Program-made: the position numbers and the translations under genes
The notes under the pieces: model-generated
What the model saw: the letters and a program-made list of their open reading frames with translations, nothing else
Told to the model about the DNA's origin: nothing
Database searches by the model: none
NCBI GenBank assembly: GCA_023213395.1
Contig: CM041465.1
Coordinates: 137,213,741-137,277,740, forward strand
Direction: 5' to 3'
Length of the DNA: 64,000 bases
DNA from: Cycas panzhihuaensis
Lineage: Eukaryota; Plantae; Cycadophyta
Part shown: positions 10,344-64,000 of the stretch, piece after piece
How positions within the stretch are numbered: the first letter of the stretch is position 1
Layout of the letters: the number at the start of each line of letters is the position of its first letter

Positions 10344-10350
10344 TTATATA
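10344..10350 (-). promoter_or_regulatory. TATA box candidate for the antisense PMD gene (E1)
   Basis: Minus strand CTATATAAGGAAAACAATGAAAACCTGATTCATTTTCAC. The same context occurs at 19258 (E2) and 60337 (E3). Confidence 0.55.
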
Positions 10351-10765: not shown

Positions 10766-11430
10766 CTACCCTTCTCGGCCCCTTCGCGCTTGCCATTCAA
10801 GTTTTTGTGTTGCTTTCACTGCTATTTGTGTTTGTTTACCAGAGCTTAGTATCCAGCCATGTCTCTCCTTGTTTTCATAGATGGTGGAAATCGCAACCGG
10901 GCCTTGGCCATTGCGTGGATTCTTCGTAGTCCTCAGGACCACGATTTCCCAAGGCCACCAATAACGGCCAAGTACACGGCCATTATGAGGCCCACAGGTG
11001 CTCTCCGCTTCCATCGCGGGCCCATTGCGTTGTTTTGCGATTCTCAGGTCGTGGTGTCCCATCTCACCCAGGTTTACCAGGTGCGATGCCCCCACTGAGA
11101 ACCCTCGCGTCTGTGTCTCTTCTAGCTTGTTTCTGCGGTGGATATTGACATATCCTAGGCACCTCAGTGGCGGCGGCGGCCTCATGCCTCATCCTTGAGC
11201 GTCGCCTCCCTCTTCTTGATGACCGCCCCTGAGGCTTGCCTGGCCATCCCATGCCCAAGTCTTCGGTTGCTATTAGTTAGATGTGCTTGGTCCATTTGCT
11301 GGGTGCCCTCCTACTTCACGTTGCACTTGACGGGGCACCCACCTTTTTACTCCGGTTTGACTCGATGTTTAGGCGGCGTGGCGGCCCCTCGTTGTTCGTC
11401 TCGTCTCTCACATCCACGCATTCGCCATGA
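10766..11430 (-). pseudogene. Second antisense orphan ORF of E1 (unknown function)
   Basis: IKKREATLKDEA...LRCLGY...RGFSV...HDLRIA is shared with E2 at ~18160-18850 and preceded by TATATATAAA (11472-11488). Confidence 0.45.
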
Positions 11431-11569: not shown

Positions 11570-14072
11570 TGTTCTCAACTATTAGGAATAGACTCAAGGG
11601 CATCGGCCTTGCAGTTTGTTCAGGTATATTCTCTTACCCTTCTTGCCTTGGCTTGATTAAGGTTAGTTAGAATAGATTGCTTGACATACGCCTGCCTGCA
11701 TGCATTGCTTGTTTGCTTATTCATAATGCATGTGCCTAACAGCACGCCTTGACTATGACGACTCACAGCGGGGGCATTCCTCAGTGAATGCGATACCCCG
11801 TATGGCATACAGCCACCCATGATGTCTCCACAGTTTCCCGGGATTATTTTCGCCAGCTTGTTTGTTCTTGTTACAACGTGTCGCGTATGTTGCAGTCCTT
11901 CCTAAGTCCGGTTTAACCCTTAGTTAGGGCTCTTTGCATTGTTTTGGGGTACTTGCCCTTGCTGCAGGCCTTCCAGCGATATAATTCATGTTTAGCCTTT
12001 GATCTTACCTCAAAACTGATTTTTCTATTATTTTTCTCTTTTTAAATTCGGGTTGATCTGGCGGTAAACTAGGACCGCAGATTCTGTGATCTGTGAGAGT
12101 TCTTGCAGACAACTGCTCGAAATTTAAAAGAGAACCACGTAACGATTCCGCTTTTTCATGGGCCCTTACGTGGCTCCGTCTGATGGGCCTCAACGTCCCC
12201 AACGTTCACTTACATGGACAAGAGATAAAACCTTTTTCCTTTCATTTGCATCATTCTTTAGCTCATTTTCCAAGACTTCCAGAAAAACTCTCCACGAAAG
12301 ACAAAAGAAAGACACGAAATCAAAGAAGTTCGAGCCGCGACAAGCGGGAGGAGAACCAGGCGCCACGGTGGATCTTGGAGGGCCATTGCTGCCCCTTGCT
12401 ACTCTCTACAACTAGCTTTCTTCCTCTTGCGGTACCACAGATCTAAGGGACTTCTTCAACAAAGAAGCTGCCCCAAAGACTCTCTTCACAGCTCCAAACT
12501 CACTAGGAGCCTCCTCCATCCACATTGCAGCAGGGAACACTCTTGATCAGTCCTCATTTGACCTCCATTGCTGTTGTCCCTAGTGGTAGGAGGCATGCAT
12601 GACCTCTCTACACAAGGTACCCCTTAGCTTTACTTGTTTTTTGTATTTTCTTGCATTTCTTCTTCCTTTTACTTGTATTTCCTTTGCTTTTTGCTTGCAA
12701 ATCCTTGGACATACTTGCACTTTTCTTGTTTTATTGGCAAGCATTCCACCTCTTCTTTCCCTTTGCTTTTACCCTTGAATGAAAGTAGCTACCATTGGCC
12801 ATAGTAGTGCTACCTTGACCGAAATCCATCTTTTTTGCTTTTCTTTAGAGTCCTCATTTTCTCCAAGCCTTCTCCCGTTCTTTCCTCAGTCGGCCAGTGA
12901 GGGAGGCGTACACGAGTTCGAGGGAGATGGCGGGGTTACATCCCCATTGTAGTCCTTCTCCCCAAGGGTTAGTCCCTTGTCCTCTTCCCCTTACCATACC
13001 ACATCCCAAGGCAGGTCGGAGGGTTTAGGAGATTGTGTCAGGCGTGCATGGGTTTGAGACCATGCATCGCCATTGTTACCATCAGGCTTTCCTTTCCACG
13101 AGCCTCTGTGGGGTCCTCCCGTGGGTGAGTTAGCCATCCCGCGGCTATACTCAATTCTACTTTGTGTGGTTGCGGCATTTGGTAGTGTAAGAGTATCTTG
13201 TGTGCTCTCGTTTCATTTTTGCTACATTTTAACATATAGCTTAGTTTGTTTAGCTAAGTTGATTTCAGTTTGCAGTACATATACATATATCTCCTTGTAT
13301 ATTTTGTAGCCTCTCCCTCGAGAGGAAGGTGCTCTTTGTGTTCTCTTGCAGGATCGTGTTGGTGGAGGTAGCGCGTGGAGCAAACCCATTGCCGGTTAGC
13401 TCCCGTACGGTATTTGCTCTCTTTTAGTTTTAAGCTTCCTTTTCATCATTTCATTTCATTTGGTTTCGCATGTTCACGGGGAGGTAAGTGAACCCCCTTA
13501 CCACCGTCAACCGACGTCGCGTGCGTGGAGAAAGGAGAAGGAGGGAGCGGAAACCTCGCGAGATCAGTGCTCGCAGCCTCAAAACCTTGAGATCCAGGTA
13601 TTCCTCGTGTTTCCTTTGCGTTTCCTCTTATATTATCCTTGCTTTCTTGCATCTGCCTGATAGGTAAAAAGATAAGAAACATAAAGAAAAAGGGGTAAAT
13701 AAACGTTTCTTACATTTGCTTTTCTGCACTAGTTTATCGCTTTACATAGCATAGTGTAGACACCCTCTTTTGTGCCAAACCCGACCTATCCTTTCGTTTT
13801 GTTTGCTTGTGTGTTGGATCAATTGTCCCCCCTTGCCTTCGTTGCCTTCTCATTGCCTTGAGAAGCATAGCGAGACACCTCCTCTCCTTCCCGGCCATCC
13901 GAAGGGTAGGAAGGCCTCGCTTTTGCACGGCTACCTGGAAGCAACCAGGCACCTTGCGGGTCCGTGCAGCTCGGTGCCGGGCGTCTGCGGTATGATCCTC
14001 GCTATCTAGCCTAGTTAGCGTAGTGTCTTTTATGCCCTTTTTGCTAGACGTAGGGGCACCGTGAGGCGTTTA
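11570..14072 (+). repeat. 3' LTR of E1 (~2.5 kb)
   Basis: Starts TGTTCTC after ...AGGCGA, as in E2. Ends ...GGCGTTTA (E2 ends ...GCGTTTCA). Colinear similarity to the reverse complement of the E2 LTRs. Confidence 0.8.
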
Positions 14073-15536: not shown

Positions 15537-18029
15537 TGAAACGCTCTCCACGGGTAATGATCCAACGCCAGCGGGAAGGACACAAAACCACAGGGGCTAA
15601 TAGGCTAAAGAACGAGGATCATACCGCGGACGTCCGTGGCGCCGGAGCCTTGAGTGCAGGGACCGCAAGGTGCTGGTTGCTTCGTAGCCGCAAGGCGAGA
15701 CCCTCCTACCCTTCGGATGGCCGGAAGGGGAAAAAGGAAACTACTTAGCCGCTACTTCTCAAGGCAATGAGAAAGCGTGAAGGGTAACTCAACCAAACGC
15801 GTCGCAGGTAAGATATATGGAAGAGGGGGTAAGGAGGGATGGGTGAAAGGATGTGAAATAGGATAATAGGGGGGGTATAGGAAAGAAAGGTAGAAGTAAA
15901 GGAAATGGAGAGTAAAAAGGAAGTAGAAAATAAATAGTTATTTCTTCCCCTTTTTCGTATCTTCTTTAACTACTAAACCAAGTCTGAACAAACGTAACAC
16001 CACCAAAAAGAGTATGGAAGGTGAGTGAGAATACGGATCCGTGGGATTGGCCGAGGACGCAGTGTCCGTCACGGTTGCGCTTCCTCCGTCGTCCTCCTCA
16101 GCGTATCGGCGTCGGTTGCAAGCGGTGATGGGGATCACTTACCTCCCAAAGCAAATAAACACTAACTAAACCGAAGCGATAGAAAATAAAGCTCAGCGAC
16201 ATAAACAAAAGGGAGAACGTTACAAACAAGCGCCGACCCAATGGTCGACCCTATGCGCCTTTGTTCAACGCCTGCAAGCAAATAAAGTAATACCTTCCTC
16301 TCGAAAGAGGGCTACGAGATACAAAAGATATATGTATATATGTTGCAAGTAAAGCAAACTAAGCTAAAAGGACATAGTTAAGCAATTATCATGCAATAAA
16401 AGAAACAACGTCATATGATGGGCATGCCAAGGTCATACACCACAAAGCACCGAATGGGGTTGAGTATAACCTCGGGATGGCTAACTCACCCACGAGAGGT
16501 CTCCACGTAATGTAAGGGAAGCGATGCTAGCATGCAACAAGAAGGATCATGGAGCAACGGGTAGCATAAGCCAAAGTAAGCACTCAACGGATTCTCCAAA
16601 GCCTCTAGCCCTATTTCTTAAGCAAAAGGGAGATAAAGGGGAGAGGAAAAGGGACCAACCCTTGGGGAGTAGGACGGCAATGGGGATTCGGAACCCCGCC
16701 TATCTCCCTCAAACCCTCGTGTAACCCTTTATGCCTATTTGCCCAAGAAATGGCGAAAGAGAAGGATGGGAGAAGAAGGATGAGTGGAAGAAAAATGGGA
16801 AACTAAGCCTATCCTTGGGTAACACTCTAATAGGCCACAAATACTATGGTTCCTTGCATCAAATGGCTAAGGGGAAGCCAAGAGAATACATATACAAAAG
16901 GAAGCAAAGAGTTGCAAGTAAAATAATACAAAAAAGCAAGCAAAACACCAAAGAAATGACACCAAATACCTTAATGGTGAAGAAGGGTGCATGTAGGCAC
17001 TTGGCAACTTGGAGCCGGTCCAAGAGATGCCTATGAAGGAATGTAGCATGTCCCTTGCAAGAGAGTGAGATGGTGGAGCCTCATGCAAGAAAATGAGATG
17101 GAAATGGTTTCTGCAATGGTTTTCTTGGTAAAATCCTCTTGGAAGCTTTCAATGTGTGTGAAGAGGAGGAATGCTTGTATTGAGTCCGTGAGGCGAATGG
17201 CCCTGTCTCCAGCAATAGCAGCTTGGTGCCTCCGTCACCGTAGAAAGATGTCTCTTATCACCGCTTTTTGTTCTTTGTCTCTTTGTGAAGAAAATGCTCT
17301 AGGAAAGTTGAAAAGTGAGGTGAATAATGAAGCAAATGAACAAAAATGGTTTTATGTCTTGAGTGAAGCGAGTGAACGTTGGGGCCCCGGGCGCCTCAAT
17401 CCGGATTAGAGCCCTTGGCAGTTCATGAAAAATCGCGAACCGCCGCGTGTTTTTTTTTAAATTTTAACACTCGTCACGATAAACTTAAGCGATGCTAAGT
17501 TATCGCAGAGCCTTGCACCGCTTGCTTGGGAACTCCATGCAGCAATTTACCGCATGATGAATCGAAACCCAAAATGTAAAATTAAAGTAAGAAATCGGGT
17601 TTTAAGGTAAAATCACAAGTTAAACTCAAAATACATTAGTCAAGAGCGCTTTTAGGTCATGGGCATGTGCTCAAAGCGGTGCAAAAAGACCTAACTAAGG
17701 GTTAAACCAAAGCTTAGAAAGGGTTTGCAACATAGCGACGCTGTAACACGCCTAAACAGCCGACAAAAGCATCCCGAAAGACCATGGAGACGCTGTGGGT
17801 GGTTGTACGCTATACGGTGTCGATTGACGATGAATGCCCCTACCGTGAGTCGTCATAGGCTAAAGGTGCCGTTAGTACATGCATAATGAACAAACAATCA
17901 AACAGTATATGGACGCACATGTCAATCAAACCATTCCCACCATCGCAACGATCATAAGTAAGCAAAGTAAAGGCATATACCGCACAAACACGTGGTCGAT
18001 GTGTCGCAAGTCCATTCCCGAATGGAACA
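15537..18029 (-). repeat. 3' LTR of E2 (2493 bp)
   Basis: TGAAACGCTCTCCACGGG...GGAACA; near-identical to 26250-28741. Confidence 0.92.
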
Positions 18030-18112
18030 TCGCCTCGGCAAGCAGAGCCTCACCGCCGAGAGCGTAATGTGATGGCGACGTCATCAACCAAGAAACATGA
18101 GTAGCACATGCA

Positions 18113-18860
18113 TATATATATAAACAATAAAGAGCAAAGACGTGGTCCAAGGGTGCGGGCAAGTGTCGTGGGCGAACGCTGGACAAGGGCGACAGAGACG
18201 AGGACAACGTGGCCGCCGCCGCTCAAACATCGAGCGGAACTCGGCAGCAAGAAGGACGGATGCCCTGCTACCAAGGTGCAATATGAAGTAGCAGTGGCAT
18301 CAGTGACAGGCAAGCGCATCTAACTAACCCGCAACTAGAGACACGCACGGGCCGGCTGTGCAAGCCTCAACCGGCCATCAAGAAGAGGGAGGCGACGCTC
18401 AAGGATGAGGCGGACGAGGTCGTCACCTCGGCATTGAGGTGCCTCGGATATCTTGAATATCCACCGATGAGAAACGAGCCGTGAGGACTCCGGCGGATGC
18501 GAGGGTTCTCAGTGAGGGCACCGCACTGTAAACTGGGTGAGGTGAGACACCACAACCTGAGAGTTGCAGAACAACACAATAGACCCTTGATGGAAACGAA
18601 GAGCACTCCAGTAAGGGGCTTCAATAACTACCGTGTACTCGGCTCATATTGGTAGCCTCGGAAGAAAGATTCCGAACGCATGTAATCATGCCCGAGGGAC
18701 CACGAAGAATCCACGCATGCGGAAGGCCGGGTTGCCGCGACTTCCACCACTCGGTGAAAATGAGGAGAGACATGGTGAATGTCGAACTCGGGCAACAAAT
18801 AGCAATGTAAGCAACACGAAGACTCGAATAGCGAACACGGCGGGCCGTGAGGGTAGGAGG
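18113..18860 (+). pseudogene. Second antisense orphan ORF of E2, with upstream TATA box
   Basis: TATATATATAAA at 18113-18124, then AIKKREATLKDEADEVVTSALRCLGYL..., homologous to E1 10766-11430. Confidence 0.45.
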
Positions 18861-19257
18861 ACCTAGCAATGAGGCTACCCGAGAGCGAGCCATCGGGGCC
18901 TTGGGCGAGAGAAGGCGGACGGGACCTGAGTCCCGAAAGTTGCTTCGGAAAGCAAAACGTGCCCCCAGACGGGGGAACACTTCCTTCGGGAGCTCCAGGG
19001 TGAAAAGGACCAAAACGAGCTCGGAGCGAAACGAGCCAAACAGTATAAACTTCGGGCATGCTCGGGAGCAACACAAGAAATCTGCAAAAGGGCCTCCCCA
19101 AAAATGCGACCATAAAGCGCCATAAATGCTTTCGTAAGAGGAAGCAAGAAGGGCGCCCATGGAGCGCAATGGGCGGCACGAAGGCAAAGGCGATCGCGGA
19201 CGAGACGGTCCCGACGATCGCCACGAGCCAAAACGGAAGAAAAGCCGTGGCCCCCGC

Positions 19258-19264
19258 TATATAA
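19258..19264 (+). promoter_or_regulatory. TATA box candidate for the antisense PMD gene (E2)
   Basis: CTATATAAGGAAAATCAATGAAAACCGGATTCATTTTCAC; context conserved in all three elements. Confidence 0.55.
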
Positions 19265-19862
19265 GGAAAATCAATGAAAACCGGATTCATTTTCACCGGC
19301 TCTTGTACGAAACCCGAGCCTTTCCCTCACGACGGAGCCGCCTCGACTAAACACACCGAGGACGATCCGACCGTTAGATCGGAGCAAGGAGACGATCTAC
19401 CGTGGGAAACGAGATGACGATCACGACGGATCCAATGAGTGGATCCCACGATACCTCGAATTTGCAATTTGAATTTCATCGCTTCATTGAATTTAACAGC
19501 TTTCCCACGCCCTTATGGGCGATCGAGGCCTCCGGTCCGAATCGACCCGAAGAGGCGGACACAGGCATTAGGCGGCCCCGTGGGCCACATGGGTCCACCG
19601 CAGTAAATTTTTGATTTTCGGGCAAAATTCCATTTTTAGAAGGTCGCCGTGATCTGCAGAAAAGATCGCGCTGACCGCGATCTTTGCCGCATATCTCGAT
19701 AGGACGATCGCCGCGGGGCCCGCTCTGAACTTAGCTGTACCGCTAAGTTCGTGAGCAGACGCAACGTAAAGTTGGAAAAACACAAAAGGGCCAAACGCCC
19801 CAAGATCGAAAAGACATAGGGATAGACTGCTAGGAGACTGACTCTCGACTGACTATGACTGA

Positions 19863-21720
19863 TTGCAGGCAGTTATCGCGGTGGACAACCGCGAGAACAT
19901 CGGCGTACCCATTCTGAGTAGCTTAGAGCTGTCGACGGAGGAGGACAAGGCGGTTGTGAAGAGATGCGGCCTATACAAGGCCTTGAAGAACCCTCAGTAC
20001 GCGTCCGATCAGAGACTCCTGGTGGACATTGTGTCGCCTTTGGGATAGGAGGAGGCATGTGTTTCACCCGCCTCGATAGGGACGTCACCATTACTCCGCA
20101 GGATGTCGCGATCACAGGGGTGCTGACCGGGAGACCCGTGAGATTGAGGGCGCCGCTAAGAATGAGGCGACACACAGGCGCCCAGTTCCTCACGGGGAGA
20201 CGGATGGCAATGAGAGGGGCTCCTCTCCGGACCAGACCTTATGTTTGGGGATTCCTCGGGCGAGGAAGCTCATTTTATTATGCATTCGCTCCTGATCTCC
20301 CGAAAGTAACTCTGTGGAGATCCCGGAGGCTGGGTGGACGCAGCACGCCGGTGCGAGGCCGGTGAGAGGATGGATTGGGCTACTCTAGTTGCGGCGAACC
20401 TCGTCGCCCAACCGGATGCGATCGAGCTCGTGGAGAGGAGGCTGTCATACAAAGACATTGCTCCAGTCCGGTTCTTTGACCATTTCGCAGCAGCGGCACC
20501 GCTAGGGGACCGTTCCCCATATCGAGGTGGGCCCCGATGGTCCACAGTGGCGACGCAGTTGAGAGGGACAGGACCGGCCTCATGTCCGCCGGTTTGCCGA
20601 CGCGACATCGCTCGACCTCCTCACCGACAGACTCACGAGCGCATCCATGGCGTGAGGTGGGCGGCGATGACCCGCCAGAGGGGAGCACCCATCGATGAGC
20701 GCCGATGGCGATGGCGACGATGGGGCGACGGGCCGGCCCATCACGACCACTGTGGATCGCAATGGATCACTGGAGTCGCCACAGGAGGGGCAGGCCCGTC
20801 AGGAGCTGCAGAGGCGAGCAGGCGCAGGGACTGGGGACTGAGCTCGGATCGTGAGGAGATCCGGAGAGCGAGAGTCGAGCCCGGCCCCTACCGAGGACGA
20901 GGCGAGGCGCAGGACGTGCTCGAGGATGAGGCAAGCCGCTGGCCACCGGGAGCTGGAGAGGAAGATGCCGCTCGAGCAGAGGGCCCGGCAGCCGCAGCAG
21001 GTGAGACCTAACCGTTCCCTTAGTCGTTTGACATCTAGATAGAATTTTGATTTGATTTGATTTATATCGAGGATACACACTGACGCATGGCATGTTGCCT
21101 CGGGCGGTGCGAGGGAGATCGTGAGGTCGATGGAGGCGGTGGCGAGGGAGATATTCCCTCGTGTCTATGCGAGGGGCAACCGCCCATCCAGTGTGTGATG
21201 AGCCTGGGCAATGGGGCCCACAGAGAGGCATCGCCCGTTGGTGAGGGCGAGGATATATGGGTGCGGAGTCCCAAGAGCACGCTACATCCTGAGGACGACA
21301 GCAGCAGGAGAGAGACGACGCGAGGCGCGAGAGGGATGAGGCGCGGCGCGAGAGAGACGAGCTGCGAGGGCGGGTCCAGGCTCTAGAGGCACAGGGTGGC
21401 ACAAAGTGAGGCAATGAGAGCAGACCCAGTGATAATCATCACAGGCGTCTTAGGACGGAGGAGGCACTCGGGAGAGCGGGATCGTATCCGGGCCGTCTGA
21501 TCGGTGGCCCAGATAGCCTCGAGGTCGAGCAGAGCCGACACATACCTGCAGCGCGGCCACGACTCCGGCCACGGACGAGGCAAGCGAGGCGGGCGGCTCG
21601 GAGGACCAGGAGGAGCCTCGCAGGACGTGGTCCCGGTGAGAGGGATCACGCAGCTGTGAGGCAGGACCCCGGGATCGGGCAGCAGCAGTAGGCTAGGAGA
21701 TCCGCACACATGTATTTTGC
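19863..21720 (+). pseudogene. Antisense PMD-domain gene of E2 (frameshifted copy)
   Basis: QYASDQRLLVDIVS, DVTITPQDV, RRCEAGERMDWATLVAANLVAQPDAIE, EGQPPIQ. Acceptor TTGCAG at ~19868 and donor CAG|GTGAGA at 21001. Confidence 0.8.
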
Positions 21721-22306
21721 CGGGAAAGCGGGCCTGTGGGGTCATATGTAGGCTCACATGATTGTACTCCCCCTGCAAGGACCCCGGCTTCCCACACACA
21801 CGATGTACTATGACATTTTGATATATATATATACATACGGGGCAATTGGAACCCCATTTTGACATGAAATGGTGTACCATGTATGGTAGAGGTAGCATGT
21901 ATGATTTATTTTGTAAATGAGTATTTTTGTATGCTGTAAATGTACATATGTTGTAGATATTTGTTTGTTTTAGAAATGCAAATGTGTAGATATGCAGATT
22001 TTTTTTGTTGTAGATATCTTATTGAAAGTATGCAGGTGTTTCCTTCCATGTATGGCCATATGTCTAACAGGAGCACACACATCCACCGTGAGTAGAGGCG
22101 ATCGAGAGGTGTGAGGTTAGAGGATGGGGCGACATACATGTCCACGAGGGAGCATAGCGGAATGTGCAAAGGAAACAACAAGCATGGAAAGGGGGAGTAA
22201 CGATCCACGTCGTCCTAATTTGGGAATGCCCAAAATAGAAGACAAAGGTTCCCAAGAGCTCATGGGAACGGGTTCCGCAGAGGAACCGGAAGCGAAATCG
22301 AAGAAA

Positions 22307-22466
22307 AATCCACCTTAAATTGCCATTCAACGTAGTTAGGAGGAATGGGGACAACCTAAGATGGTAGTTTAGGCTCGCCGAGCAAGAATCCATCTCAAAT
22401 TGCCATTCCACCCGTGGTTGGGAGGAATGGGAACAATCTAAAATGGTAGTTTAGGCCGTTGCGAGC
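22307..22466. repeat. ~80-bp tandem repeat x2 in the E2 internal region
   Basis: AATCCA.CT.AAATTGCCATTC...GGAGGAATGGG.ACAA.CTAA.ATGGTAGTTTAGGC occurs twice. Single copies occur in E1 (~7100-7170) and E3 (~63440-63510). Confidence 0.8.
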
Positions 22467-22513
22467 GCGAGGAGAGGAAGAGGTGTGCCCAGACCCCATA
22501 AAGGTAGGGGTAG

Positions 22514-25500
22514 TCACACGCAGGTAGGAGATAGGTGACGAAGAGTAGGTCCAAGATCGCTAGGTCTACCAAGAAACTTGCTATGGTCGGAACGGATGAG
22601 TGCACAGACTTGGCACACGGATCGCTGCGGGCAAGGTTGCATCCGAGTAGGAGTGGCTCTAGTCCGAGGTAAGGATCTAGAACGTGAAGAAGAAGTGCCT
22701 CTACGAGTGGCTCGCCGGCGTGGGCGCCTACGTGAAACCGCTCGGGGGGGTCGAGAAGGTAAAATAAATGGCTGGTTTAGGACCAGTGGCTCAGGAGCCA
22801 CTGTAGAATGAGGAAGAGCGGGAATATCGTAGAGATATTCCCCTAAGTGCTCGCGAAACCAGGGTGACACGTCGAGGAGAGGGCCCATAACCCTCGCTAT
22901 CTGAATCAGAATCACTCATGGCGGCTAAGTAACCGTAACCACCTACGCCAATAGGGGCAAACCTAACTAGGTTTGGCTCATGACGTGGCATATTCGACCG
23001 ATGAAGGTCTCCTGAAACAAAGGTCCCACTAAGGGGTAACCTCCTCGTGATCGCTATCTTCATCATCGAAAATCACCGGGCAGGATGAGAGGTGTGAGAC
23101 GATTGGCTCACGGGCGACAACTTTAACTTGTCCTTCATGGACAAATTTAAGTTGCCCATCGGTGGGAGTGCATGCTCCCATCCGGGTCGAGCCATGGTCG
23201 GCCCAACAAGAGGTTGTACTCCACATCGACATCGAGTACAAAGAACCCGATGTAAGCTTTTCCCTCCTAAGGTGAGGGATGGGAGATCGCCCCGGAGGGA
23301 CTTCTCGCCCCATCATACCCTTGGCATTTCCAAGGATGACTAAGAGCTACTATGCCTAGCTCCTTGAGCATACGCACAGACATAGCATTGATCGAAGAGC
23401 TATTATCTACAATGGTCCTCTTTACGATACAATCGAGTGTCAATGGTAATGACGTAATGCACGTAAGAGCTTCTCCGCTTCTTTGGGAGATGGGAGATCT
23501 CTAGGATCAAATGAGATGACAGGTGGTCCATGGGAGGTAGCACCTATCGCATGGATGGAAGCATCTTGTTGGCCAAGAGCTTCAAGAAGAAGAGCACGTT
23601 GCTCGTGGCTTCTCAAGACGTCCATCAAGGACATTCCCGCAATGACCAGATAGAGCTCGTCAACGATAGAAAAGGGCTTACCCTTCCCCGTGGGTTGGGT
23701 AAGCGCCCTTCTAAAGTCGAATCTACCAGGTCAGACGGGAATAGTCTTGGGAAGCGCTGGAATCTCCGGAGGAATAGCTTCCGGAGGAGGATCAAGGTAA
23801 GATGTGGATGAAGAGGCACCGGCTGCCTCTTTAGCAGCTTGGGACCGGGTTAAGGCATATAACGGAGTGGTCTCAAGCAATTGGACAACCTTCTTTCCCT
23901 TATAGCGGGACCGCGAAGGTGATGGAGCACGGCGGTGGGAGCGCCAAGGAAGGTGACCTTCGCACACCCTTCCCTCTACCATGCGAAGGGCGAGGATCGG
24001 GAGATCTATCCCGATTCTGACTGTATCTTTGTTGAACATCATGACCACGTTCCCCATGTTTGGGGAACGGGTCTCTATAACAGTCGATCGAGGTTAGGCC
24101 TCGATGTCCGCTGGGGACAGTCGCGAGGCGGGGGCGTCGCGGGTGCCGTGCCCAACGCGCGTCATCATGGAAACACTCCCCGTGGATGGAACACCACCTC
24201 TTCTCAAGGGAGGATCGATCCTCCTTGCTTGAGAAGACGGGTGTTGCCCCTTTGGGGGCATCGCACGAGAAGTCTGTGAGCAATGTCTATGGGAGGTAGG
24301 CGGCGAAGGAGGTTGGAGTTTTAACTCCTCATCGTGCGCCGAATGAGCGAATGGCGGAGGTAAGCGATCTAGGGTCCTCTCACGGATGAGAGGTGGACCT
24401 AGCGGCTGAAGGTGTGGTCTCCTTCATTGGAGGAGGCGCCATGACGTTGCGAGGGCTTGGGAGGTTTCTTGAGACCTGCTTAGATCTCAATAGCCTCCAA
24501 AGCTAAACACCTCGAGATGGCAGAGTCACACGTGGTTGCCCCCATCTTGAGGACTTCCACATGCACTTCGGGGCGAAGTGCATTGACAAAGAGATCCCTC
24601 TTCAACTCCTCAGGCAATGTGGCCTTGGTGGAATGAAGAAGATCGTGAAAACGTCGCACAAAGTCACGATTCATCTCATCGTGACCTTGTTTGAGCGACA
24701 GAAGCGCCTTCATTCCGCTTTCGAATGGACGACTACGTCAAAGTAGTTGACGAACTCGCCCACTAGCCGGAATGAGGAAATCGAATGGGCAGGAAGGCGA
24801 TAGAACCACTTGAGGGCGTCGCCCTGCAAGGATCGCGGGAAGAGCTTCATCAAGATGTGGTCGTAGGCCCAATAGTCAATGCACGCCATGGAAAAGTCAC
24901 ATGACGTGTTTCGGTTGGGTCTTGCGACGAAGTCCCGCCAAATTTGGGGACTTCAAGAGGATGAGGCGAGTTAGTCCTTAGCGCCTCTCGGACAAGGCGT
25001 CGACCTATAGTCCACGAAAGGACGTGTCCTTGCACGGCTAAAGGATCGACAACCTCGAAAGGCACGGACGGGGTGTCGGTCCCATCCTCCTTGAGAAAAC
25101 ACCCCTTGTGGGAAGGGGGTGCAGGCAGATGTTGGAAAGGAGGCGCTCCTCAGGCCGGGCGCAGCAGCCAGGAGTCGCTACTGGACGTCGGAAACAGGGG
25201 TGAGGGGCCGGTTTGCCCATATGGGCCACCGTAGGTGGCGCGACCCCATATGGGTGCAACGGGTCCACTCCATGAGCAGGAGGTGGTTTCCTTGCCCGCC
25301 CCAAGGTTGTGACGTGTAGCACGGGGCACGAAAGAGAAGGACCACCAACCGTTGGACATACGTGGGAGTGGGTCCTACATGGTGGCGCTGGCAGGTGGCC
25401 TCGAGGCCTACTAGGAACGCAGCGGCGCCACGTTCGCGGTGGCACGCGTGCGTTTGGTTTGAGCAAGGCATACTAACCCGAGTTGAGGAAAGATGCCATG

Positions 25501-25960
25501 CGGAGTCCCGGGAAGTGGGACCACGACTAGAAGCAAACGCAACACCGCCTTAGAGCCGGGTAGACACGGCATAGGGCGGTGTACGCCAGGGCGACGTATC
25601 AATCGTCAGAGATGGCGTGGGCATGGATGAGGAAGACGCCACGCGTTGCGTAGCATCTCCAGTTAACCATCTAGGAGGCGGTTGGCGAATCGCCGAAAGT
25701 ACTGTAAGCGCCTCGACCGCGTCGGAGGGGTATCCTCATAGCCATACGAGGTCGAAGGGACTTGAAGGTGGGGACCTCAGGCGCCTCGTAAGGCTCGCCC
25801 GGAGGTGGCGGGTCTCACGAGTAGCCGGATCTTCCACCGCATGAGTGGAAGGCTCAAAATCTTCGGGGTGGAAATGGTCATCGTAGGTAATAGATGGAAT
25901 CCTCGCCCTCACGGTGGATTCCGGAGCAGACGAAGGGAACTCATGAGTTCAAGTCATAAC
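22514..25960 (-). pseudogene. gag-protease of E2 (frameshifted)
   Basis: MKALLSLKQGHDEMNRDFVRRFHDLL...LFVNALRPEV (Retrotrans_gag); WCSIHGECFHDDAR (Tat-type Zn knuckle); protease IVKRTIVDNSSSIN and YNLLLGRPW. Confidence 0.85.
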
Positions 25961-26229
25961 ATGGTAGGCCCAATCGGACGGGTAACCTTCCATCGAAACG
26001 GGCTCGACGATGGAATGAACGCGACGATTGGTCTTCAACAACGGCAAACCCGCAAGGCCAAGCGAGAACGCCGTGATGCAACGCCCGCGGCGTTGTTAGA
26101 AAAGCGAAAAGGAAAAGGAAGGAAAGCCGCAAACCCGCTGGGGTTGCCCAACTCAAAACACAAAATGCGAGCCTACCTAAAGGCAAGAGCACCAACACGA
26201 AGGGAAGCGGATCTAGCTCCCTTTACCGG

Positions 26230-26249
26230 CGCCCCAAGATGGTCGCCGG
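26230..26249 (-). promoter_or_regulatory. Primer-binding site of E2 (degenerate, TGGCGAC-type)
   Basis: Minus strand ...CGTTTCA|CCGGCGACCATCTTGGGG, immediately after the 5' LTR. Confidence 0.55.
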
Positions 26250-28741
26250 TGAAACGCTCTCCACGGGCAATGATCCAACGCCTAGTGAAGGACACAAAAC
26301 CACTGTGGCTAATAGGCTAAAGAACGAGGATCATACCTCGGACGCCCGTCTTGTGGGAGGCGTGCACGGGCGCAAGGTGCTGGTTGCTCTGTGTAGCCGC
26401 TGAAGGCGAGACCTCCTACCCTTCGGATGGCCGGAAGGGGAAAAGGAAACGCACGCCGCTACTTCTCAAGGCAATGAGAAAGCGAAGGGGTAACCAACCA
26501 AACGTGTCGCAGTAAGATATATGCAAGAGCGGCTAAGGAGGGATCCCAAAGGATCTCAAATACTATAATACGCTGGTATAGCAAAGAAAGGTACAAGTAA
26601 AGCAAATGCAGAGTAAAAAGCAAGTACAAAATAAATAGTTATTTCTTCCCTTTTTCTTATGTTCTTTAACTACTAAAGCAAGTGTAAAGAAACGTAAGAG
26701 CACGAAAAAGAGTATGGAAGGTGAGCGAGAATACACCGGATCCGTGGTTGAGACGCAGTGTCCGATCACCTGTTGCGCTTCCTCCCGTCGTCCTCCTCAG
26801 ATGCGTCGGTTGCAGCGGTGATGGGGATCACTTACCTCCCAAAGCAAATAAACACTAACTAAATCGAAACGATGAAAATAAAGCTCAAAGCGACATAAAC
26901 AAAAGCGAGAACCTACCAAACAAGCGTCGGCCAAGATGGGTCGACCTATGCGCCTTTGTTCGAACGCCTCCCGCAAGCAAATAAGCGTAATACCTTCCTC
27001 TCGAAAGAGGGGCTACGAGATACAAAAGATATATGTATATATGTTGCAAGTAAAGCAAACTAAGCTAAAAGGACATAGTTAAGCACTATCATACAATAAA
27101 AGAAACAACGTCATATGACAGGCATGCCAAGGTCATACACCACAAACGCACTCGAATGGGGTTGAGTATAGCCTCTGGATGGCTAACTCACCCACGAGAG
27201 GTCTCCATGTAATGTAAGGGAAACGATGCTAGCATGCAACAAGAAGGATCATGGAGCAACGGTAGCATAAGCCAAAGTAAGCACTCAACCGATTCTCCAA
27301 AGCCTCTCTAGCCCTATTTCTTAAGCAAAAGGAGATAAAGGGGAGAGGAAAAAGGGACGGAACCCTTGGGGAGTAGGGCGGCAATGGGGACGGAACCCGC
27401 CTATCTTCCTCAAACCCTCGTGTAACCCTTTATGCCGGTTTGCCCAAGAAATGGCGAAAGAGAAGGATGGGAGAAGAAGGATGAGTGGAAGAAAAATGGG
27501 AAACTAAGCCTATCCTTGGGTAACACTCTAATAGGCCACAAATACTATGGTTCCTTGCATCAAATGGCTAAGGGAAGCCAAGAGAATACATATACAAAAG
27601 GAAGCAAAGAGTTGCAAGTAAAATAATACAAAAAGCAAGCAAAACACCAAAGAAATGACACCAAATACCTCTAATGGTGAAGAAGGAGTGCATGTAGGCA
27701 CTTGGCAACTTGGAGCAGCGGTCCAAGAGATGCCTATGAAGGAATGTAGCATGTCCCTTGCAAGAGAGTGAGATGGTGGAGCCTCATGCAAGAAAATGAG
27801 ATGGAAATGGTTTCTTGCAATGGTTTTCTTGGTAAAATCCTCTTGGAAGCTTTCAATGTGTGTGAAGAGGAGGAATGCTTGTATTGGAGTCTGAGGGGCA
27901 AGAATGGCCCCGTATCTCCAAAGAATAGCAGCCCTTGGTGCCTCCGTCCCCACAAACAGAAAGATGTCTCTTATCCGCTTTTGTTCTTTGTCTCTTTGTG
28001 AAGAAAATGCTCAGGAAAGTTGAAAAGTGAGGTGAATAATGAAGCAAATGAATAAAAAATGGTTTTATGTCTTGAGTGAAGCCAGTGAACGTTGGGGCCC
28101 CGCGCCCAACTGTTAGAGCCACGCAGCCCGCCAAAAATCGCGGCACCGCCGCGTTTCTTTTTTTAATTTTAAGCGATCAAGGCGATAAACTTAGCGCATC
28201 GCTAAGTTTATCGCAGATGCACCGGCACCGCCGAACTCCGCAGCATCGCTTAATTTACCGCAGACGGAACCGAAACCCAAAAATGTAAAATTAAAGTAAG
28301 AAATCGGGTTTTAAGGTAAAATCACAAGTTAAACTCAAAATACATTAGTCAAGAGCGCTTTAGGTCATGGGCATGTGCTCAAGCGGCAAAAGACCTAACT
28401 AAGGGTTAAACCAGCTTAGAAAGGGTTTGCAACATAAGCAAGACGCGGTAACACGCCTAAACAGTGACAAAAGCATCCCGAAGACCATGGAGACGCTGTG
28501 GTGGTTGTACGCCATACGGTGTCGATTCACGATGAATGCCTCATTGTGAGTCGTCATAGGCTAAAAGGTGCCGTTAGGCACATGCATAATGAACAAACAA
28601 TCAAACAGGTGCATATGGACAGGCACATGTCAATCAAACCATTCCCACCATCGCAACGATCATAAGTAAGCAAAGTAAAGGCATATACCGCACAAACCTC
28701 GTGTCGATGTGTCATGAAGTCCATTCCGATAGCCGGAAACA
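26250..28741 (-). repeat. 5' LTR of E2 (2492 bp)
   Basis: Direct repeat of 15537-18029; adjacent to the PBS; followed by TSD GTTGT. Confidence 0.92.
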
Positions 28742-44054: not shown

Positions 44055-47831
<3,777 letters not shown>

Positions 47832-59700: not shown

Positions 59701-61008
59701 ATTATGCTTTTACAAAATATTTAATTACCCATAGTTGATATTACCAAATAAAAAATGTTATAACTTATTAAAAGAATCAAAATAAGCAATGTATGAAGAA
59801 AAAGCAAATCTCATACCATATTCTTAAACATCATACCTTCTACTAGTCCATTCATATCATATAGGTTATATAAACCATTGTTATGATCATTAGTACCTGA
59901 AGTAATAACAACCCTATAATGATCTCCGTAATTCCTTTTTTGCAAAACCTTTTTTTGGTAAATTCAACCTTATAAATTTTTTGACAAAGTTGGTAAACAA
60001 AGGTTGCTTGGGAAAGCAAAGAGTACCCCCGAACGAGGGGAGCATTCCCTCTGGAGGCCCCAGGGGCAGAAAAGAGCTGCAAAAATGGGTCCAGGATGGC
60101 AAAACGAGTATAAACTCAGGCACGCATAAGAGTGGCACGCAAAACGCGACAAAAGGGCCCTGCGAAAAATGCATAGGAAGGGTGCCATAAATGCATCCGC
60201 AAGAAGAAGCGAGTCGAAGGCTATGGGAGCATAACAGGAGACAAGGCCAGGAGGCAAAGGTGATCTAGGGATAGAGATGATCCAGAGGGCTGTCATGAAG
60301 GCGGAAATGGAGACAGTGCCCATTGGGGTCCCCGCCTACATAAGGAAATTCGATGGAAAATGAATTCATTTTCACGGGCTTTCAAGAGAATCCACAGCCA
60401 TTCCCTTACGCAGCAGAGCGCTACCTAACTTTGGAGGCACACAGAGGGAGATCAGACCATTGGATCATAGCGAGAGAACAGCAGTTGGGACCGTCGAGAC
60501 GAGATAACGAGTGCTACGTTAAATCCAGTGAGTGGATCCCACAAAACCCAGCCCATCTTGTGGTTTCAATTTTATTGCTTTTTGTTGTTTTTACGTAGGT
60601 TTTTGGGCCCCTTATGGGCGAGAAAAGGCCTCCCGGAGTTCGAATTAGACCCAGAAAGAGGCAGGATTGGGGCATTAGGCAGCCCTGGTCTCAGTGGACC
60701 CCGCAGGGCCCACCTAAAAGATTTTTTTGTATTTTTTTGGGCAGGAAACCCCCCCATTTTGGGTTGGTGTTGTTCGCACTGCAACAAAGATCGCGGTGTT
60801 GTGATCTTTGCCGCGGGGCCCCGATCACCGCAAGACCCGTGCTAAACTTCATGGTACCGCGAAGTTTGGTGCGGTCTGGTAATCGAGCTGAAAAAGGAAG
60901 ATAGGGGCCTAGGAGGCCCCAAATCTCGATCAGGTGGAGCTGATGGGTGGTTGAAGGGACAAAGAGCTAATGTAGGCTAAGATATTACTAGTTTCATGGT
61001 GTTTGCAG

Positions 61009-62930
61009 GTCATGATCATGGTGGAAACCCGCGAGAACATAGGCATGGCCATGTTGAGCTTCATCAAGATGATGAGCAGGGAGGACAAGGGAGTCCTATG
61101 GAGATGCGGGTTGTTGAAGGTGGTGAGGACACCTCAGTACATGTTGGACCAGAGGCTGCTGATAGACATCGTGTCACACTGGGATCGGAGGAGGCACGTT
61201 TTCCACCTACCCCAGGTGGGAGACGTAACAGTGACACCTGAGGACATTAGACGGATACTAGGAGTACCAGCGACTACGAGGCTGACAGCATTAGGAGCGC
61301 TGCCTAGTAATGAGGTAGTACACAGGGAGGCAGCGACATTCTTTCTGAGGATCGAGACGGATGGGAGGCGAGGGGTTCCTCTCCAGGCTATGGTCATGTC
61401 AGGGATTCCTCAAGTGAGGAAATTGATTACTTTATGCATTCTGTTTCAGATTTCCCATAAACAAAACTATAGGGACATCCCAAGAGGGTGGATGGATGTA
61501 ATACGCCGATGCAATGCCGGCGAGAGGATGGACTAGTCCACTCTGATAGCGGTGAACCTCGTCGCACAACTAGACACCATCAGAGTAGCAGGCCATGGAG
61601 GACTGTCATATAACACATTATTACAGTGTTGGTTTTTTTATCACTTTGGGGCAGTGGCACCAGTAGGGGGACCACACCCTATTGCAGAGTGGGCCCCGAT
61701 GGTCCACAGATGGCAGACTAGACTGAGAGGGACAGAGGACCAGGCTCATGTCCGACGCTCAGTGGAGGCCATATTACTAGACCTCCTCACCATGATGGAC
61801 TATATAGCAGATCCATACAGGGCAGTGAGGTGGGACAACGATGATGAGGCAGGAGGAGCAGGGGTGCCCCCAGGAGACGATGAGGGCAGAGATGGAGGTG
61901 ATGGGGCTGGCCCATCATGACCTGCAGGAGAGGTAGGTCTGTTAGCGACATCAGGTAGAGGAGCAGGGCCATCTGGGACTGCCAAAGACAGCAGGCAGCC
62001 CATCGTGGGGCTGACGCGAGCAAGGGGCTAGTGACACTGGCCCGCAGGCTACGAATCGTGAGAAAATATGGAGAGGTGATAGCAGAGCCAGTTGCAGAGA
62101 GGAGAGAGGCCATAGCGGAGGAGGTACCAGAGGAGGAGGTACTAGGCGGTGGCAGTGCTAGAGGGGAGGCACGCTTGAGTCAAGAGCTCACCGCACTGTG
62201 TGAGACATAGCTTTTTCCTATCGTCGTTTGATTGCCAAATAGATAGTTTGATTTTAGTTTGATATCCATATAGACATGGACTGACATGTGGTATACTGGG
62301 TTGCAGGTATGGTAGACATGCAGAGGTTAGTGGAGGCGGTAGTCCGAGAGGTATTCCCTCGAGCCTACGCGGAGGGACAGCCTCCCATACAGGCAGGGGA
62401 TGAGCCTAGAGTGGCAAGCGGTCACATGCCAGCTTTTGCCCCATTGATACGGGTGAAAGATATATGGGTGGCAGAGTCTCAAGAGCACGAGGCACGTGCG
62501 AGGCAGCAACAGGCTGAGATGGACACCATCCGAGCTTAGAGGGACACCCTACAGGCGCAAGTGTAGACACTGGAGGCTCAGGGAGGAGTCAAAGGGGATA
62601 TGGGGAGCCATATCCCGGTGATAGTGGTAGAGGAGAGACTCCGGGGGATGGAGAGGAGGCCCCACATCATAGAGATGAAGCGGGATCGTGTCCAGGTGCG
62701 ATACGATCGATTGGTCGAGGACATGGCGTCGAGGTCGGCACGGAGCAAGACACAGACCCATATAGTAGTGATGACCCCGAGGAGGCCATGAGACGAAGGG
62801 AGCGAGGTAGGGAGCTCACGGAGACCCAGGAGGAGTCTGAGAGAGATGTAGTCCCCAGGAGGGAGAGATCACACCGACCAAGAGATGATGCCCTAGGAGC
62901 AGGGCTACGGTAGAGTAGTATGCATGTACT
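61009..62930 (+). pseudogene. Antisense Plant Mobile Domain (PMD, PF10536-like) gene of E3, best-preserved copy; intron at 62200-62306
   Basis: DQRLLIDIVSHWDRRRHVFHLPQVGDVTVTPEDIRRILGVP matches the PMD signature D..L..LVERW..ETHTFHLP.GE.TITLEDV..ILGLP; also LLQCWFFYHF. The 177-aa and 122-aa ORFs are in one frame, broken by TGG>TAG (61534) and a likely CGA>TGA (61918). The last exon is coiled-coil-like. Confidence 0.85.
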
Positions 62931-63538
62931 TAATTTTTGACAAGGGAAAGAACGTGCCTCCAAGGGGACCATATATAGAGTCATATGATTGTACCCCCCT
63001 TGTAAGGACACCGGCTTCCCATATGTATGATACGACACATGATTTTGATGTATATATAGACGGGGTGGTTAGTACCCCATTTTGATATGTGATGATGTGT
63101 ATATTTTGTTTAATAGTTGATATGTATGGTTTGTATTTTGTTATGATTATTTGTTCAAGTTACACATATTTCTTTTCATGCAAGGCCGTATACCTAACAG
63201 GAGCACACACGACCACTAGTAGAGGTGATAGGCATATGTGGGGTTAGGAAATAGAGCGACACGGATATCCACATGGGAGCATAGCGGGATATACAAAGGA
63301 AATACTAAGTGAGAGGGGGGAGTAACGATACTCCAGAGCATCATCCTAACTGGGGGATGCCTAAATAGGAGGACAAGGCCCCAAGGAAGAATGGGAACAA
63401 GGGTTCCACGGGAGGAACCAGAAGAAAACAAAAGAGACCATCCCAAACCACCCTTCTACCTGTGGCTGGGAGGAAAGGGAACAAACTTAAGATGGTAGTT
63501 TAGGCTCATTTCAGAGCGTGGACGAGGTGACGGCAAGG

Positions 63539-64000
63539 TCATGAGTAAAACATCTTAAGGAATTTCCCATTAACGGCTTTCTCAAATTCAAGACCCTCCA
63601 GGGTGGCGATCCTGTAGGCGCTGTTACCAAGGCTTTCGATAATGACAAAGGGGCCAACCCATCTGGGCCTAAATTTGGCCAAGTAGTTGTGAAGATATTC
63701 CAGTTTGAGGACATGGTCCCGGGGAAATAAAGGACAGGAACGAAGATGTTTATCGTAGGTCCTTTGTGAGCGAGCTTTGGATGCTAGGTTAGCTTGGTAG
63801 GCAGCTAAGCGTCTCTCACCCAAAGCTTCGAGGTCCAGGAGGCGAGCCTGGTGGATCAACTCCTCATCGATGAGACCCCGAAGAGAAACTCACAGGGAGG
63901 GAATCTCAACTAGGTGGCGCACGGAGCCCGCTAAGTGCTCAAGTAAGGCTTCATCGTCTTCGAAGTAATCCACCCCATGGATGACCTTACTTCGAATAGA
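63539..64000 (-). pseudogene. Integrase C-terminus (GPF motif) fused in frame to the pre-RT spacer
   Basis: SIRSKVIHGVDYFEDDEALLEHLAGSVRHL|VEIPSL*VSLRGL...KFRPRWVGPFVI...AVNGKFLKMFYS. Confidence 0.85.

Follow-up and report, generated by a model that had tools for sequence, protein, structure and literature searches.

An antisense PMD gene under purifying selection in TatIII-like retrotransposons of Cycas panzhihuaensis

Introduction

The 64-kb stretch of Cycas panzhihuaensis DNA analysed here (contig CM041465.1; hereafter the window) harbours three copies, E1, E2 and E3, of one retrotransposon family. All three carry a PMD gene on the strand opposite to gag-pol, and two of them lack the core of pol. 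This raises the question what such a gene contributes to the elements and why copies without pol have kept it. An earlier interpretation of the letters alone (the sequence-only reading) had seen here the best candidate for an undescribed system, in which a self-contained PMD cassette would encode a VANC-like chromatin effector (anti-silencing or decoy) that could turn pol-less copies into trans-acting partners of autonomous ones. The explanation favoured here, with a probability of roughly 0.55, is that the antisense PMD gene is an accessory gene of the whole family, likely coding for a DNA-binding anti-silencer, and that pol-less copies likely carry it because their deletions spare the rest of the element. 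The positions of the features are listed in Table 1.

Table 1 Features of E1, E2 and E3 in the window
Feature	Position	Strand	Remarks
E1 RT, RH and integrase region	4271..7060	+	heavily frameshifted as assembled
E1 antisense PMD cassette	7500..10350	-	tblastn, alignment, dN/dS
E1 archaeal-type RNase H ORF, own ATG	10859..11110 (tested part only)	+	ESM Atlas, profile, dN/dS
E1 3′ LTR	11570..14070 (right end approximate)	+	aligns to E2 LTRs; begins after same PPT-like stretch
E2 whole pol-less element, 13,205 bp	15537..28741	-	LTRs 15537-18029 and 26250-28741, TG..CA ends, 5-bp GTTGT duplication
E2 archaeal-type RNase H ORF	18480..18773 (tested part only)	-	ATG at 18773; frameshifted as assembled
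E2 antisense PMD cassette	19258..22050	+	PMD from ~19869; assembled with frameshifts
E2 junction zone, ~310 bp	22475..22785	-	~3.4 kb of E1-equivalent DNA (RT, RH, all integrase) absent; the ~310 bp unassigned
E2 gag pieces and protease	23165..24952	-	weak gag Pfam matches; protease tblastn E 3e-7
E3 TATA-like block of antisense gene, TACATAAGG	60337..60345	+	aligned with 19258 and 10350
E3 predicted intron 1, leader	60528..61008	+	acceptor CAG conserved in 3/3 copies; donor not
E3 PMD coding region	61009..61845	+	PF10536; single in-frame stop at 61534
E3 acidic, Gly/Arg-rich linker	61846..62199	+	stops and frame change
E3 predicted intron 2	62200..62306	+	107 nt, GT..AG
E3 last exon with QRLVEA motif, coiled-coil-like in part	62307..62908	+	five stops
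E3 3′ region	62909..63200	+	T-rich tract; (TA)4 at 63051
E3 integrase C-terminal part (SH3-like)	63542..63911	-	PF24626 weak; 75% to P0034
E3 deletion junction	63912..63947	-	~2.7 kb RT, RH, integrase core absent vs E1

Architecture and classification of the elements

The elements are ordered gag-PR-RT-RH-INT; next comes the PMD cassette, read in the opposite direction, and then an RNase H ORF in gag-pol orientation, after which the 3′ LTR follows. Searches with aRH-bearing polyproteins (tblastn) revealed a Tat-type order of PR, RT and INT in E1, with RT at 4271-5041 (E 1e-4) and integrase at 5901-6932 (E 3e-18); RH was recognised by eye in the translation only. In the frameshifted E1 pieces Pfam missed RT, RH and the integrase core, of which tblastn caught RT and integrase. 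A Pfam match of the AlkB type at about 4259-4391 (E 1e-4, below the cut-off) overlaps a stretch aligning to the Tat pre-RT segment and was dismissed as chance. Among the top relatives of the family integrase (P0034), most contain PF13456.

TatIII elements are described, in the available part of one source, as having an additional archaeal-type RNase H (aRH) after the integrase, a 5-bp TSD, a size of 12.7-17.3 kb and a reverse extra ORF at the 3′ side (PMC6317226). Their aRH lies in a separate ORF (PMC10508981), as is also stated in an excerpt of PMC13468544, and for Tat lineage III of gymnosperms an antisense 3′ PMD ORF has been published (PMC4408406, available part). In the window an additional RNase H is found after the integrase, outside pol, in E1 and E2, and an antisense 3′ extra ORF with PMD was recognised by tblastn, in E3 also by Pfam. 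TSD and size could be read from E2 only; its length with the missing 3.4 kb or so added also lies within the TatIII range. A candidate PBS-like stretch follows the E2 5′ LTR, where TatIII elements are expected to have a PBS for tRNA-Arg or tRNA-His. Gymnosperm hosts and a degraded native RH also belong to the TatIII description; the native RH of E1 is heavily frameshifted. Since both the free-standing archaeal-type RNase H and the antisense 3′ PMD ORF have been published for TatIII, the sequence points to E1, E2 and E3 being TatIII-type (Tat structure #3) Ty3/gypsy retrotransposons.

The archaeal-type RNase H ORF had been overlooked in the earlier note on this DNA. The E1 copy obtained an ESM Atlas RNase_H/RVT_3 score of 0.92, and a custom profile gave E 0.003, against a best E of 5.3 in the reversed-window control; searches with Pfam or against PDB sequences alone did not detect it. 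In E1 and E2 the ORF lies 485-509 bp upstream of the TATA-like block of the cassette and faces away from it, behind a pyrimidine-rich leader. E3 homology stops before this position, ending at about 59998. No LTR-like sequence was found past 29000 in the 64-kb window, so the E3 LTRs lie outside it or have been lost.

The antisense PMD gene

The E3 PMD region (61012-61917, with the in-domain stop read as X) matches PF10536 with 43.2 bits against a cut-off of 34.9 (E 3.8e-11), confirming the domain that had been proposed from the letters. The E1 and E2 regions gave no Pfam match and are tied to the domain through tblastn, in which E3 PMD finds its homologues in E2 (E 1e-25) and E1 (E 1e-6). A HMMER scan returned 28 relatives of E3 PMD; relatives P0006, P0030 and P0013 score 86-114 with PF10536, and P0020, also among the 28, was rejected as a repeat-like chance match. 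Named plant PMD proteins show 23-36 % identity, the best named relative being from a conifer (23 %). A word-indexed search with E3 PMD gave no match, and in a scan of JGI metagenomes with P0002 none of the 328 pattern matches was confirmed.

The layout common to the three copies was upheld for the PMD, the TATA-like block, the (TA)n and the motif of the last exon; the coiled coil was recognised by visual inspection alone, the splicing being a prediction. TATA-like blocks with conserved flanks are found at 10350(-), 19258(+) and 60337(+), with TACATAAGG in E3 and TATATAAGG in E1 and E2. The donor of predicted intron 1 is not conserved in E2, nor is the ATG at 61012. The three copies align over the GT..AG stretch of predicted intron 2, which in E3 is in phase with the QRLVEA motif. 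The QRLVEA..EGQPPIQA motif is shared by E3 and E1 (E 2e-13) and is split over frames in E2. The last exon has no ESM Atlas match, and Pfam gives only a weak unrelated one. (TA)n tracts lie at 7646 (E1), 21822 (E2) and 63051 (E3), in 3′ regions with 33-44 % T. Among 24 sequencing runs no RNA run carrying the family was listed, an outcome that does not bear on expression. Run X24, which is RNA by guess only, provided 238 contigs on E3, whose depth peaks in the 3′ half of PMD but cannot rank the parts; among the X24 joints listed (15 of 108), none coincides with a predicted intron. The term 'self-contained' fits this layout only in part, as the RNase H ORF facing away adjoins the cassette in E1 and E2.

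Selection on the cassette

Pairwise dN/dS of PMD is 0.26 (0.15-0.40) for E3 against E2 and 0.34 (0.19-0.55) for E3 against E1, values that come from three error-laden copies and span the entire time since their divergence. Four of the other five frames of the PMD region lie at 0.73-1.42; the fifth, on the opposite strand and sharing third positions with the PMD frame, gives 0.49 and 0.64. The last exon shows 0.19-0.22 in pairwise comparison, and the linker 0.66, with an interval of 0.22-1.62 from 28 codons only. For comparison, dN/dS is 0.28 for the integrase tail (E3 vs E1), 0.25 for RNase H (E1 vs E2), and 0.26 and 0.25 for the protease and a gag piece (E2 vs E1). Non-coding controls gave 0.60-1.03 in all nine frames, and differences were not clearly concentrated at third positions. 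Purifying selection thus acts with similar strength on gag, protease, integrase tail and RNase H as on PMD and last exon, the latter two (0.19-0.34) being comparable to the integrase.

Differences per codon position in the PMD frame amount to 45/46/81 and 37/35/57, and a pile-up at third positions is also present in the last exon; in predicted intron 1 the differences show no such excess. The region might instead be kept in cis, for promoter or splice signals of RNase H or for a regulatory antisense RNA, with the PMD frame secondary. An RNase H outside pol, with its own ATG and a pyrimidine-rich leader at so short a distance from the TATA-like block, would suit such a role, and roles of antisense RNA have been discussed (PMC7264820). 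However, the third-position excess in the PMD frame and the last exon calls for selection on the protein, which makes retention in cis highly improbable. The alignments support the view that the element-encoded PMD protein is under selection.

Copies without a pol core

As had been noticed earlier, E2 and E3 both lack the RT-RH-INT core, through different deletions, and keep the cassette, with the qualification that the E3 cassette is broken and that E3 retains the C-terminus of the integrase (75 % identity to P0034 residues 254-336). E2 shows no match to RT or integrase. In E3 the alignment leaps from E1 3959 to E1 6674, a junction that is based on a 50-bp, 78 % match at the edge of the window and on one listed public contig that spans it. 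This contig (X24 record 16) has 77 differing letters over 507; the E3-type pol-less form has therefore probably multiplied. The cassette of E3 is interrupted by nine stops (61534, 61918, 62029, 62032 and five in exon 3) and by a frame change in the linker.

The two LTRs of E2 differ by 42 transitions, 59 transversions and 111 indel events, against 137, 53 and 26 in an unrelated duplication of the window. Many of the E2 indels look like assembly error, and LTR dating of E2 was discarded since the differences resemble read error. The heavy DNA divergence ascribed to the three cassettes is accordingly in part an artefact.

It was hypothesized that pol-less copies are selected for their PMD, which would act against silencing in trans while autonomous copies give Pol. 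The cassette is indeed kept in both pol-less copies despite their different deletions, E2 has inserted as a complete element flanked by a target duplication, and the diverged contig across the E3 junction suggests a form that was multiplied. However, gag, protease and RNase H are likewise retained in E2, under the same selection, and an integrase tail in E3; PMD is not singled out, and its retention in pol-less copies is therefore not special. The pol-bearing E1 also has the cassette, so there is no division of labour. The nine stops in the E3 cassette also speak against the partnership, and pairwise dN/dS cannot assign selection to pol-less branches. A helper role is unsupported, as the integrase tail retained by E3 cannot work alone and two copies give no retention rate, and the proposed partnership is very doubtful. 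In the favoured explanation, deletions would strip RT, RH and integrase and spare the rest, hence the PMD kept in pol-less copies. Such copies may be parasites that draw on the Pol of intact relatives; if an intact PMD protein is made from them, it would be a by-product common to the whole family.

Relation to known systems

The family resembles TatIII in the aRH after the integrase in a separate ORF, the antisense 3′ PMD extra ORF, the 5-bp TSD and the size, as far as the available parts of the sources describe these. In contrast to what these TatIII texts contain, the PMD cassette of the window sits between the integrase and the RNase H and is oriented head to head to the latter; PMC4408406, in its available part, gives PMD alone for lineage III, whereas a coiled-coil-like last exon follows a predicted intron here; and the pol core is missing in two of the three copies. 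In Ogre elements (Tat lineages IV and V), too, a coiled coil comes after the PMD, and in lineage V the ORF is antisense and at the 3′ side, according to excerpts of the sources; PMD was reported in 57 % of Ogre elements (PMC6317226, available part). However, the additional RNase H of Ogre is located between RH and integrase inside Pol, and E1 has no such match there. Gene23 of Grande from maize and other antisense 3′ ORFs are likewise situated between pol and the 3′ LTR, are conserved like pol and have their own promoter; the product of the Grande antisense gene is nuclear (PMC7264820). No PMD is named in that paper, and transcription has been shown for Grande whereas the cassette is known here from sequence.

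The claim of an undescribed system could not be maintained, as the antisense 3′ PMD ORF appears in the available part of PMC4408406 and the anti-silencing idea for transposon PMDs in that of PMC5418596. In titles and the starts of abstracts, neither pol-less TatIII copies nor the head-to-head order of PMD and RNase H was encountered, nor was a spliced coiled-coil-like exon found in print; the figures of PMC4408406 and PMC10508981, the supplement of PMC4408406, the supplements of the preprint (bioRxiv 2024.09.27.615353) and Steinbauerova 2011 may show the order. The whole text of PMC10508981 mentions neither PMD nor antisense. As existence and position of the PMD gene were already known, the gain lies in detail and in a test case rather than in a new system. 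The function of retrotransposon-borne PMDs and the expression of the free-standing RNase H are described as open questions (PMC4408406, available part; PMC10508981).

Possible function of the PMD protein

The host proteins MAIN, MAIL1 and MAIL2 (PMD-C) belong to the same domain family as the element PMD, according to excerpts, and are encoded by host genes. Host PMD-C proteins were reported to occupy DNA motifs, to oppose Polycomb/H3K27me3 and to resemble DUF1985 of VANC (bioRxiv 2024.09.27.615353, available part); these published functional data concern host PMD-C and not PMD-A, the clade of retrotransposon PMDs (PMC5418596). VANC, from VANDAL DNA transposons, would share the proposed mode of action, with the difference that binding and demethylation were demonstrated for VANC, whereas the element PMD is known from sequence and a model. 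In a low-confidence model of the PMD protein (mean pLDDT 54), VANC21-DNA (9lnk_A) ranked first of 48,161 chains, with Z 4.7, rmsd 5.4 and 166 residues aligned, against at most 86 in the other 49 of the best 50 rows; this Z does not reach the usual noise level of the tool (7-8), and rank 2, at Z 4.2, is tied with it. A first model (pLDDT 47) had no Foldseek match, sequence searches found no solved PMD relative, and simple k-mer counting in the element DNA revealed no outstanding repeated short motif. The VANC analogy of the sequence-only reading, judged from the weak fold match and from host PMD-C, is plausible for the element protein.

The PMD protein may be useful in another way than as a DNA-binding anti-silencer: as a decoy of MAIN/MAIL, in nuclear import, in targeting of integration or in coiled-coil particle assembly. 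Selection on the protein is silent as to its function, retrovirus-like accessory roles have been proposed for antisense ORFs (PMC7264820), and the identity to named plant PMD proteins is low. The only long fold match, though weak, is however a DNA-bound anti-silencer, and the function of host PMD-C points to motif-guided chromatin action. Such other roles are considered rather unlikely.

In the favoured explanation the cassette would be transcribed from a promoter of its own, located at the TATA-like block, and the transcript would be spliced twice to encode PMD, linker and coiled coil. The protein would enter the nucleus, bind short motifs in DNA of the family through a VANC-like fold and, once bound, oppose repressive chromatin, keeping family promoters unsilenced. 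The 0.5 kb that separate PMD from RNase H may drive or feed both genes. A VANC-like anti-silencer of this kind could help to explain the build-up of elements in very large plant genomes.

A bolder proposal is a two-gene accessory module of TatIII elements on a short divergent promoter, consisting of a free-standing RNase H and a spliced PMD-coiled-coil anti-silencer that is a true structural relative of VANC. In pol-less subfamilies selection would maintain this module together with gag; they would supply autonomous copies with anti-silencing, capsid and RNase H and receive RT and integrase from them. This proposal as a whole is very unlikely; if true, it would be the first VANC-like system of a retrotransposon and would account for the production of an RNase H that lies outside pol.

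The family offers an anatomy that can be tested: the position of the promoter, two predicted introns and an RNase H start 0.5 kb away on the other strand. Its pol-bearing and pol-less relatives are abundant enough to allow counts of retention and selection, the family matching 63,865, 69,931 and 70,746 contigs in three DNA runs.

Structure and classification of the elements

Three related elements were recognized by self-comparison of the window. Because an RNase H ORF was found beyond the predicted promoter of the PMD cassette, the gene antisense to gag-pol, the element order is read as gag-PR-RT-RH-INT, the PMD cassette backwards, RNase H forwards and the LTR. The family is abundant: 63,865, 69,931 and 70,746 contigs match E3 in three DNA runs, each labelled as a different species and each covered to about half. 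The E3 piece stops abruptly against AT-rich DNA, ahead of the expected RNase H ORF and 3' LTR.

Elements and free-standing RNase H ORFs, in window coordinates
Feature	Position	Strand	Remarks
E1	before base 1 to about 14070	+	from self-comparison
E2	15537-28741	-	complete; 2.5-kb LTRs, TG..CA ends, 5-bp target duplication
E2 LTR pair	15537-18029 and 26250-28741		LTR pair of the complete element E2
E3	window end down to about 59998	-	element piece, no adjoining LTR
E1 archaeal-type RNase H ORF	10859-11110	+	ATG 10859, 509 bp from TATA block
E2 archaeal-type RNase H ORF	18480-18773	-	ATG 18773, 485 bp from TATA block

The PMD is the commonest extra domain of plant Gypsy elements (PMC9289625, excerpts). 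An antisense 3' ORF with a PMD has been described for gymnosperm Tat lineage III, and a PMD plus coiled coil for Tat lineages IV and V (PMC4408406, excerpts). TatIII is defined by an RNase H after the integrase; its members have 5-bp TSDs and measure 12.7-17.3 kb, and of 39 elements 18% have a 3' ORF in reverse orientation (PMC6317226, excerpts). A separate-ORF RNase H occurs in conifers, Ginkgo and Cycas, in a paper whose text places it 'upstream of pol' and asks how RNase H can work from a separate ORF (PMC10508981); the structure is called post-integrase in PMC13468544 (excerpts). The window elements share with TatIII the RNase H after the integrase and its separate ORF (both in E1 and E2), the antisense 3' PMD ORF and, in E2, the 5-bp target duplication, and by the structural features tested they are TatIII-type elements with an antisense PMD gene. 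Since that ORF is already described in PMC4408406, the sequence-only reading's candidate for an 'undescribed system' is not supported. New details, compared with lineage III as described, are the position of the cassette between the integrase and a free-standing RNase H and a predicted spliced coiled-coil exon; a further one is the existence of pol-less derivatives retaining both accessory genes. Among the papers listed by the literature search, judged by title and opening of the abstract, none treats pol-less TatIII elements or a head-to-head PMD/RNase H order.

The antisense PMD gene

The sequence-only reading had placed the same cassette in all three elements, and in this it was mostly right. 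A TATA-like block with conserved flanks is present at the proposed position in every copy (10350 in E1, 19258 in E2, 60337 in E3). The E3 segment 61012-61917 (one stop as X) scored 43.2 bits against PF10536 (cut-off 34.9 bits); the frameshifted cassettes of E1 and E2 gave no Pfam hit, and were matched by the E3 PMD in tblastn (E 1e-6 and 1e-25, respectively). An acceptor CAG precedes the PMD in 3/3 copies, and a 107-nt GT..AG stretch, in phase with the exon in E3, precedes the QRLVEA exon; the splicing is predicted, and the coiled coil of this last exon is a judgement by eye. Neither the first-intron donor nor ATG 61012 is conserved in E2, which makes the placement of the protein start tentative. 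In the assembled sequence the cassette of E3 itself is dead: stops interrupt the PMD (one), the linker frame (three) and the last exon (five).

Copies compared in pairs over codons free of gaps gave dN/dS values that show the antisense PMD to be a protein-coding gene under selection, carried by pol-bearing and pol-less copies alike; neutral evolution, named beforehand as a refutation, was not found. For the PMD, dN/dS was 0.26 between E3 and E2 (0.15-0.40, 188 codons) and 0.34 between E3 and E1 (0.19-0.55, 138 codons); for the last exon it was 0.19 and 0.22 (40 and 58 codons). The integrase tail gave 0.28 and the linker 0.66, with a wide interval (0.22-1.62) from 28 codons only. Three non-coding controls in nine frames gave 0.60-1.03, with differences about even across codon positions. 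Four of the five other PMD frames gave 0.73-1.42; the fifth, on the opposite strand with third positions in common, gave 0.49 and 0.64.

A HMMER scan returned 28 relatives, the closest being open fragments of 62-75% identity (all three looked up are Logan contigs), two of which stay open across the E3 PMD stop. In the best named relative, P0013 (Cryptomeria japonica LOC131063168; E 4e-8, 23%), the PMD is followed by an acidic segment and then by a tail that is charged and coiled-coil-like. This layout closely resembles that of the window cassette, and P0013 may be a copy derived from an element or a domesticated one.

The two LTRs of E2 are separated by 42 transitions, 59 transversions and 111 indel events, against 137, 53 and 26 for the two copies of an unrelated, transition-rich duplicated segment (42076/47963). 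Most are clustered 1-2 base indels and transversions, and only 25 events are isolated (9 substitutions). We infer uncorrected long-read error. The frameshifts of E1 and E2 are then no sign of decay, and the reading frames of these copies cannot be taken for intact ones either; E2 could be young, and the frameshifts of both may not be real.

The free-standing RNase H

The sequence-only reading had missed an RNase H that is arranged head to head with the cassette. When RNase H segments of 42 Tat-type polyproteins served as queries, the best hit fell in E1 at 10871-11086 (E 0.002), on its gag-pol strand and past the predicted promoter of the cassette; a profile search gave E 0.003 versus 5.3 for the best reversed-window hit. 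The RNase H went undetected when Pfam and PDB were searched by sequence only; in the ESM Atlas it fell among RNase_H/RVT_3 clusters with a score of 0.92, and 10/10 best family hits agree. E1 and E2 have the start ATG in common, with conserved context and a pyrimidine-rich leader, and dN/dS between them is 0.25 (0.11-0.51, 58 codons).

Loss of pol and the proposed function

E1 has an RT at 4271-5041 (E 1e-4) and an integrase at 5901-6932 (E 3e-18). A weak AlkB-type Pfam hit in its pre-RT segment, 4259-4391 (+), was judged a chance mimic. E2 and E3 lack these regions in different ways and keep the cassette, as had been noticed. E2 gave no match to integrase or RT sequences; its alignment with E1 runs to about E1 3331, weakly to 3697, and picks up again at 7084; about 310 bp of E2 in between are unassigned. 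In E3, the equivalents of E1 positions 3959 and 6674 are joined; the 2,714 bases between them are missing, and the integrase C-terminus is kept. Upstream of this junction the match is just 50 bp long, with 78% identity, and lies at the window edge. One listed public contig with another species label (X24 record 16) crosses this junction with 77 other letters and 4 gaps in 507 bases; the pol-less form is therefore common to a diverged copy and has probably multiplied.

Just after the integrase a conserved motif is doubled in E2 (22304-22456), and contigs of two runs jump back about 170 bases at the matching place in E3 (63339-63517); tandem duplication there therefore recurs in the family.

The antisense PMD gene would run from its own promoter, as Grande gene23 does (PMC7264820), and its PMD-coiled-coil product may enter the nucleus, bind family DNA and oppose silencing. 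Host PMD-C proteins occupy DNA motifs and counter H3K27me3, and their fold resembles DUF1985 of VANC (bioRxiv 2024.09.27.615353, excerpts). The VANC comparison drawn earlier is reasonable but not new, anti-silencing by transposon PMDs having been speculated for MULEs (PMC5418596, excerpts). For a poor structure model of the E3 PMD (pLDDT 54), the top fold match among 48,161 chains was DNA-bound VANC21 (Z 4.7, rmsd 5.4, 166 residues aligned; at most 86 in the other 49 listed matches). This suggests a VANC-like fold weakly, because the Z lies within the tool's noise range, rank 2 ties with it, and a previous model had no fold match.

On the simplest reading, a single internal deletion took out RT-RH-INT and spared both flanks, and pol-less copies would borrow Pol in trans. 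As helpers supplying PMD to the family, they should retain PMD above gag and RNase H, with selection inside pol-less branches, which is beyond the reach of two copies and pairwise rates. PMD is not the sole retention in pol-less E2, which keeps the RNase H ORF, protease and a gag piece with a similar signature (dN/dS 0.26 and 0.25 for the latter two). That pol-less TatIII supply autonomous copies with capsid and with the products of a two-gene module on one divergent promoter, a VANC-related PMD anti-silencer plus RNase H, and receive RT and integrase from them, is given a chance of roughly one in eight.

Other features of the window

A leucine-rich-repeat receptor-like gene (LRRNT_2 and many LRRs) extends over 51314-54631 (-) across three overlapping frames; the three ORFs scanned gave no kinase hit. 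A 1.9-kb AT-rich direct repeat (42076-43949 and 47963-49808; 87% identical, K2P 0.11, transition-rich) is possibly an older, unrelated element. Between its two copies lie a shorter repeat of 248 bp (44055/47582) and, near 46370-46800, more than 400 bp of (TA)n.
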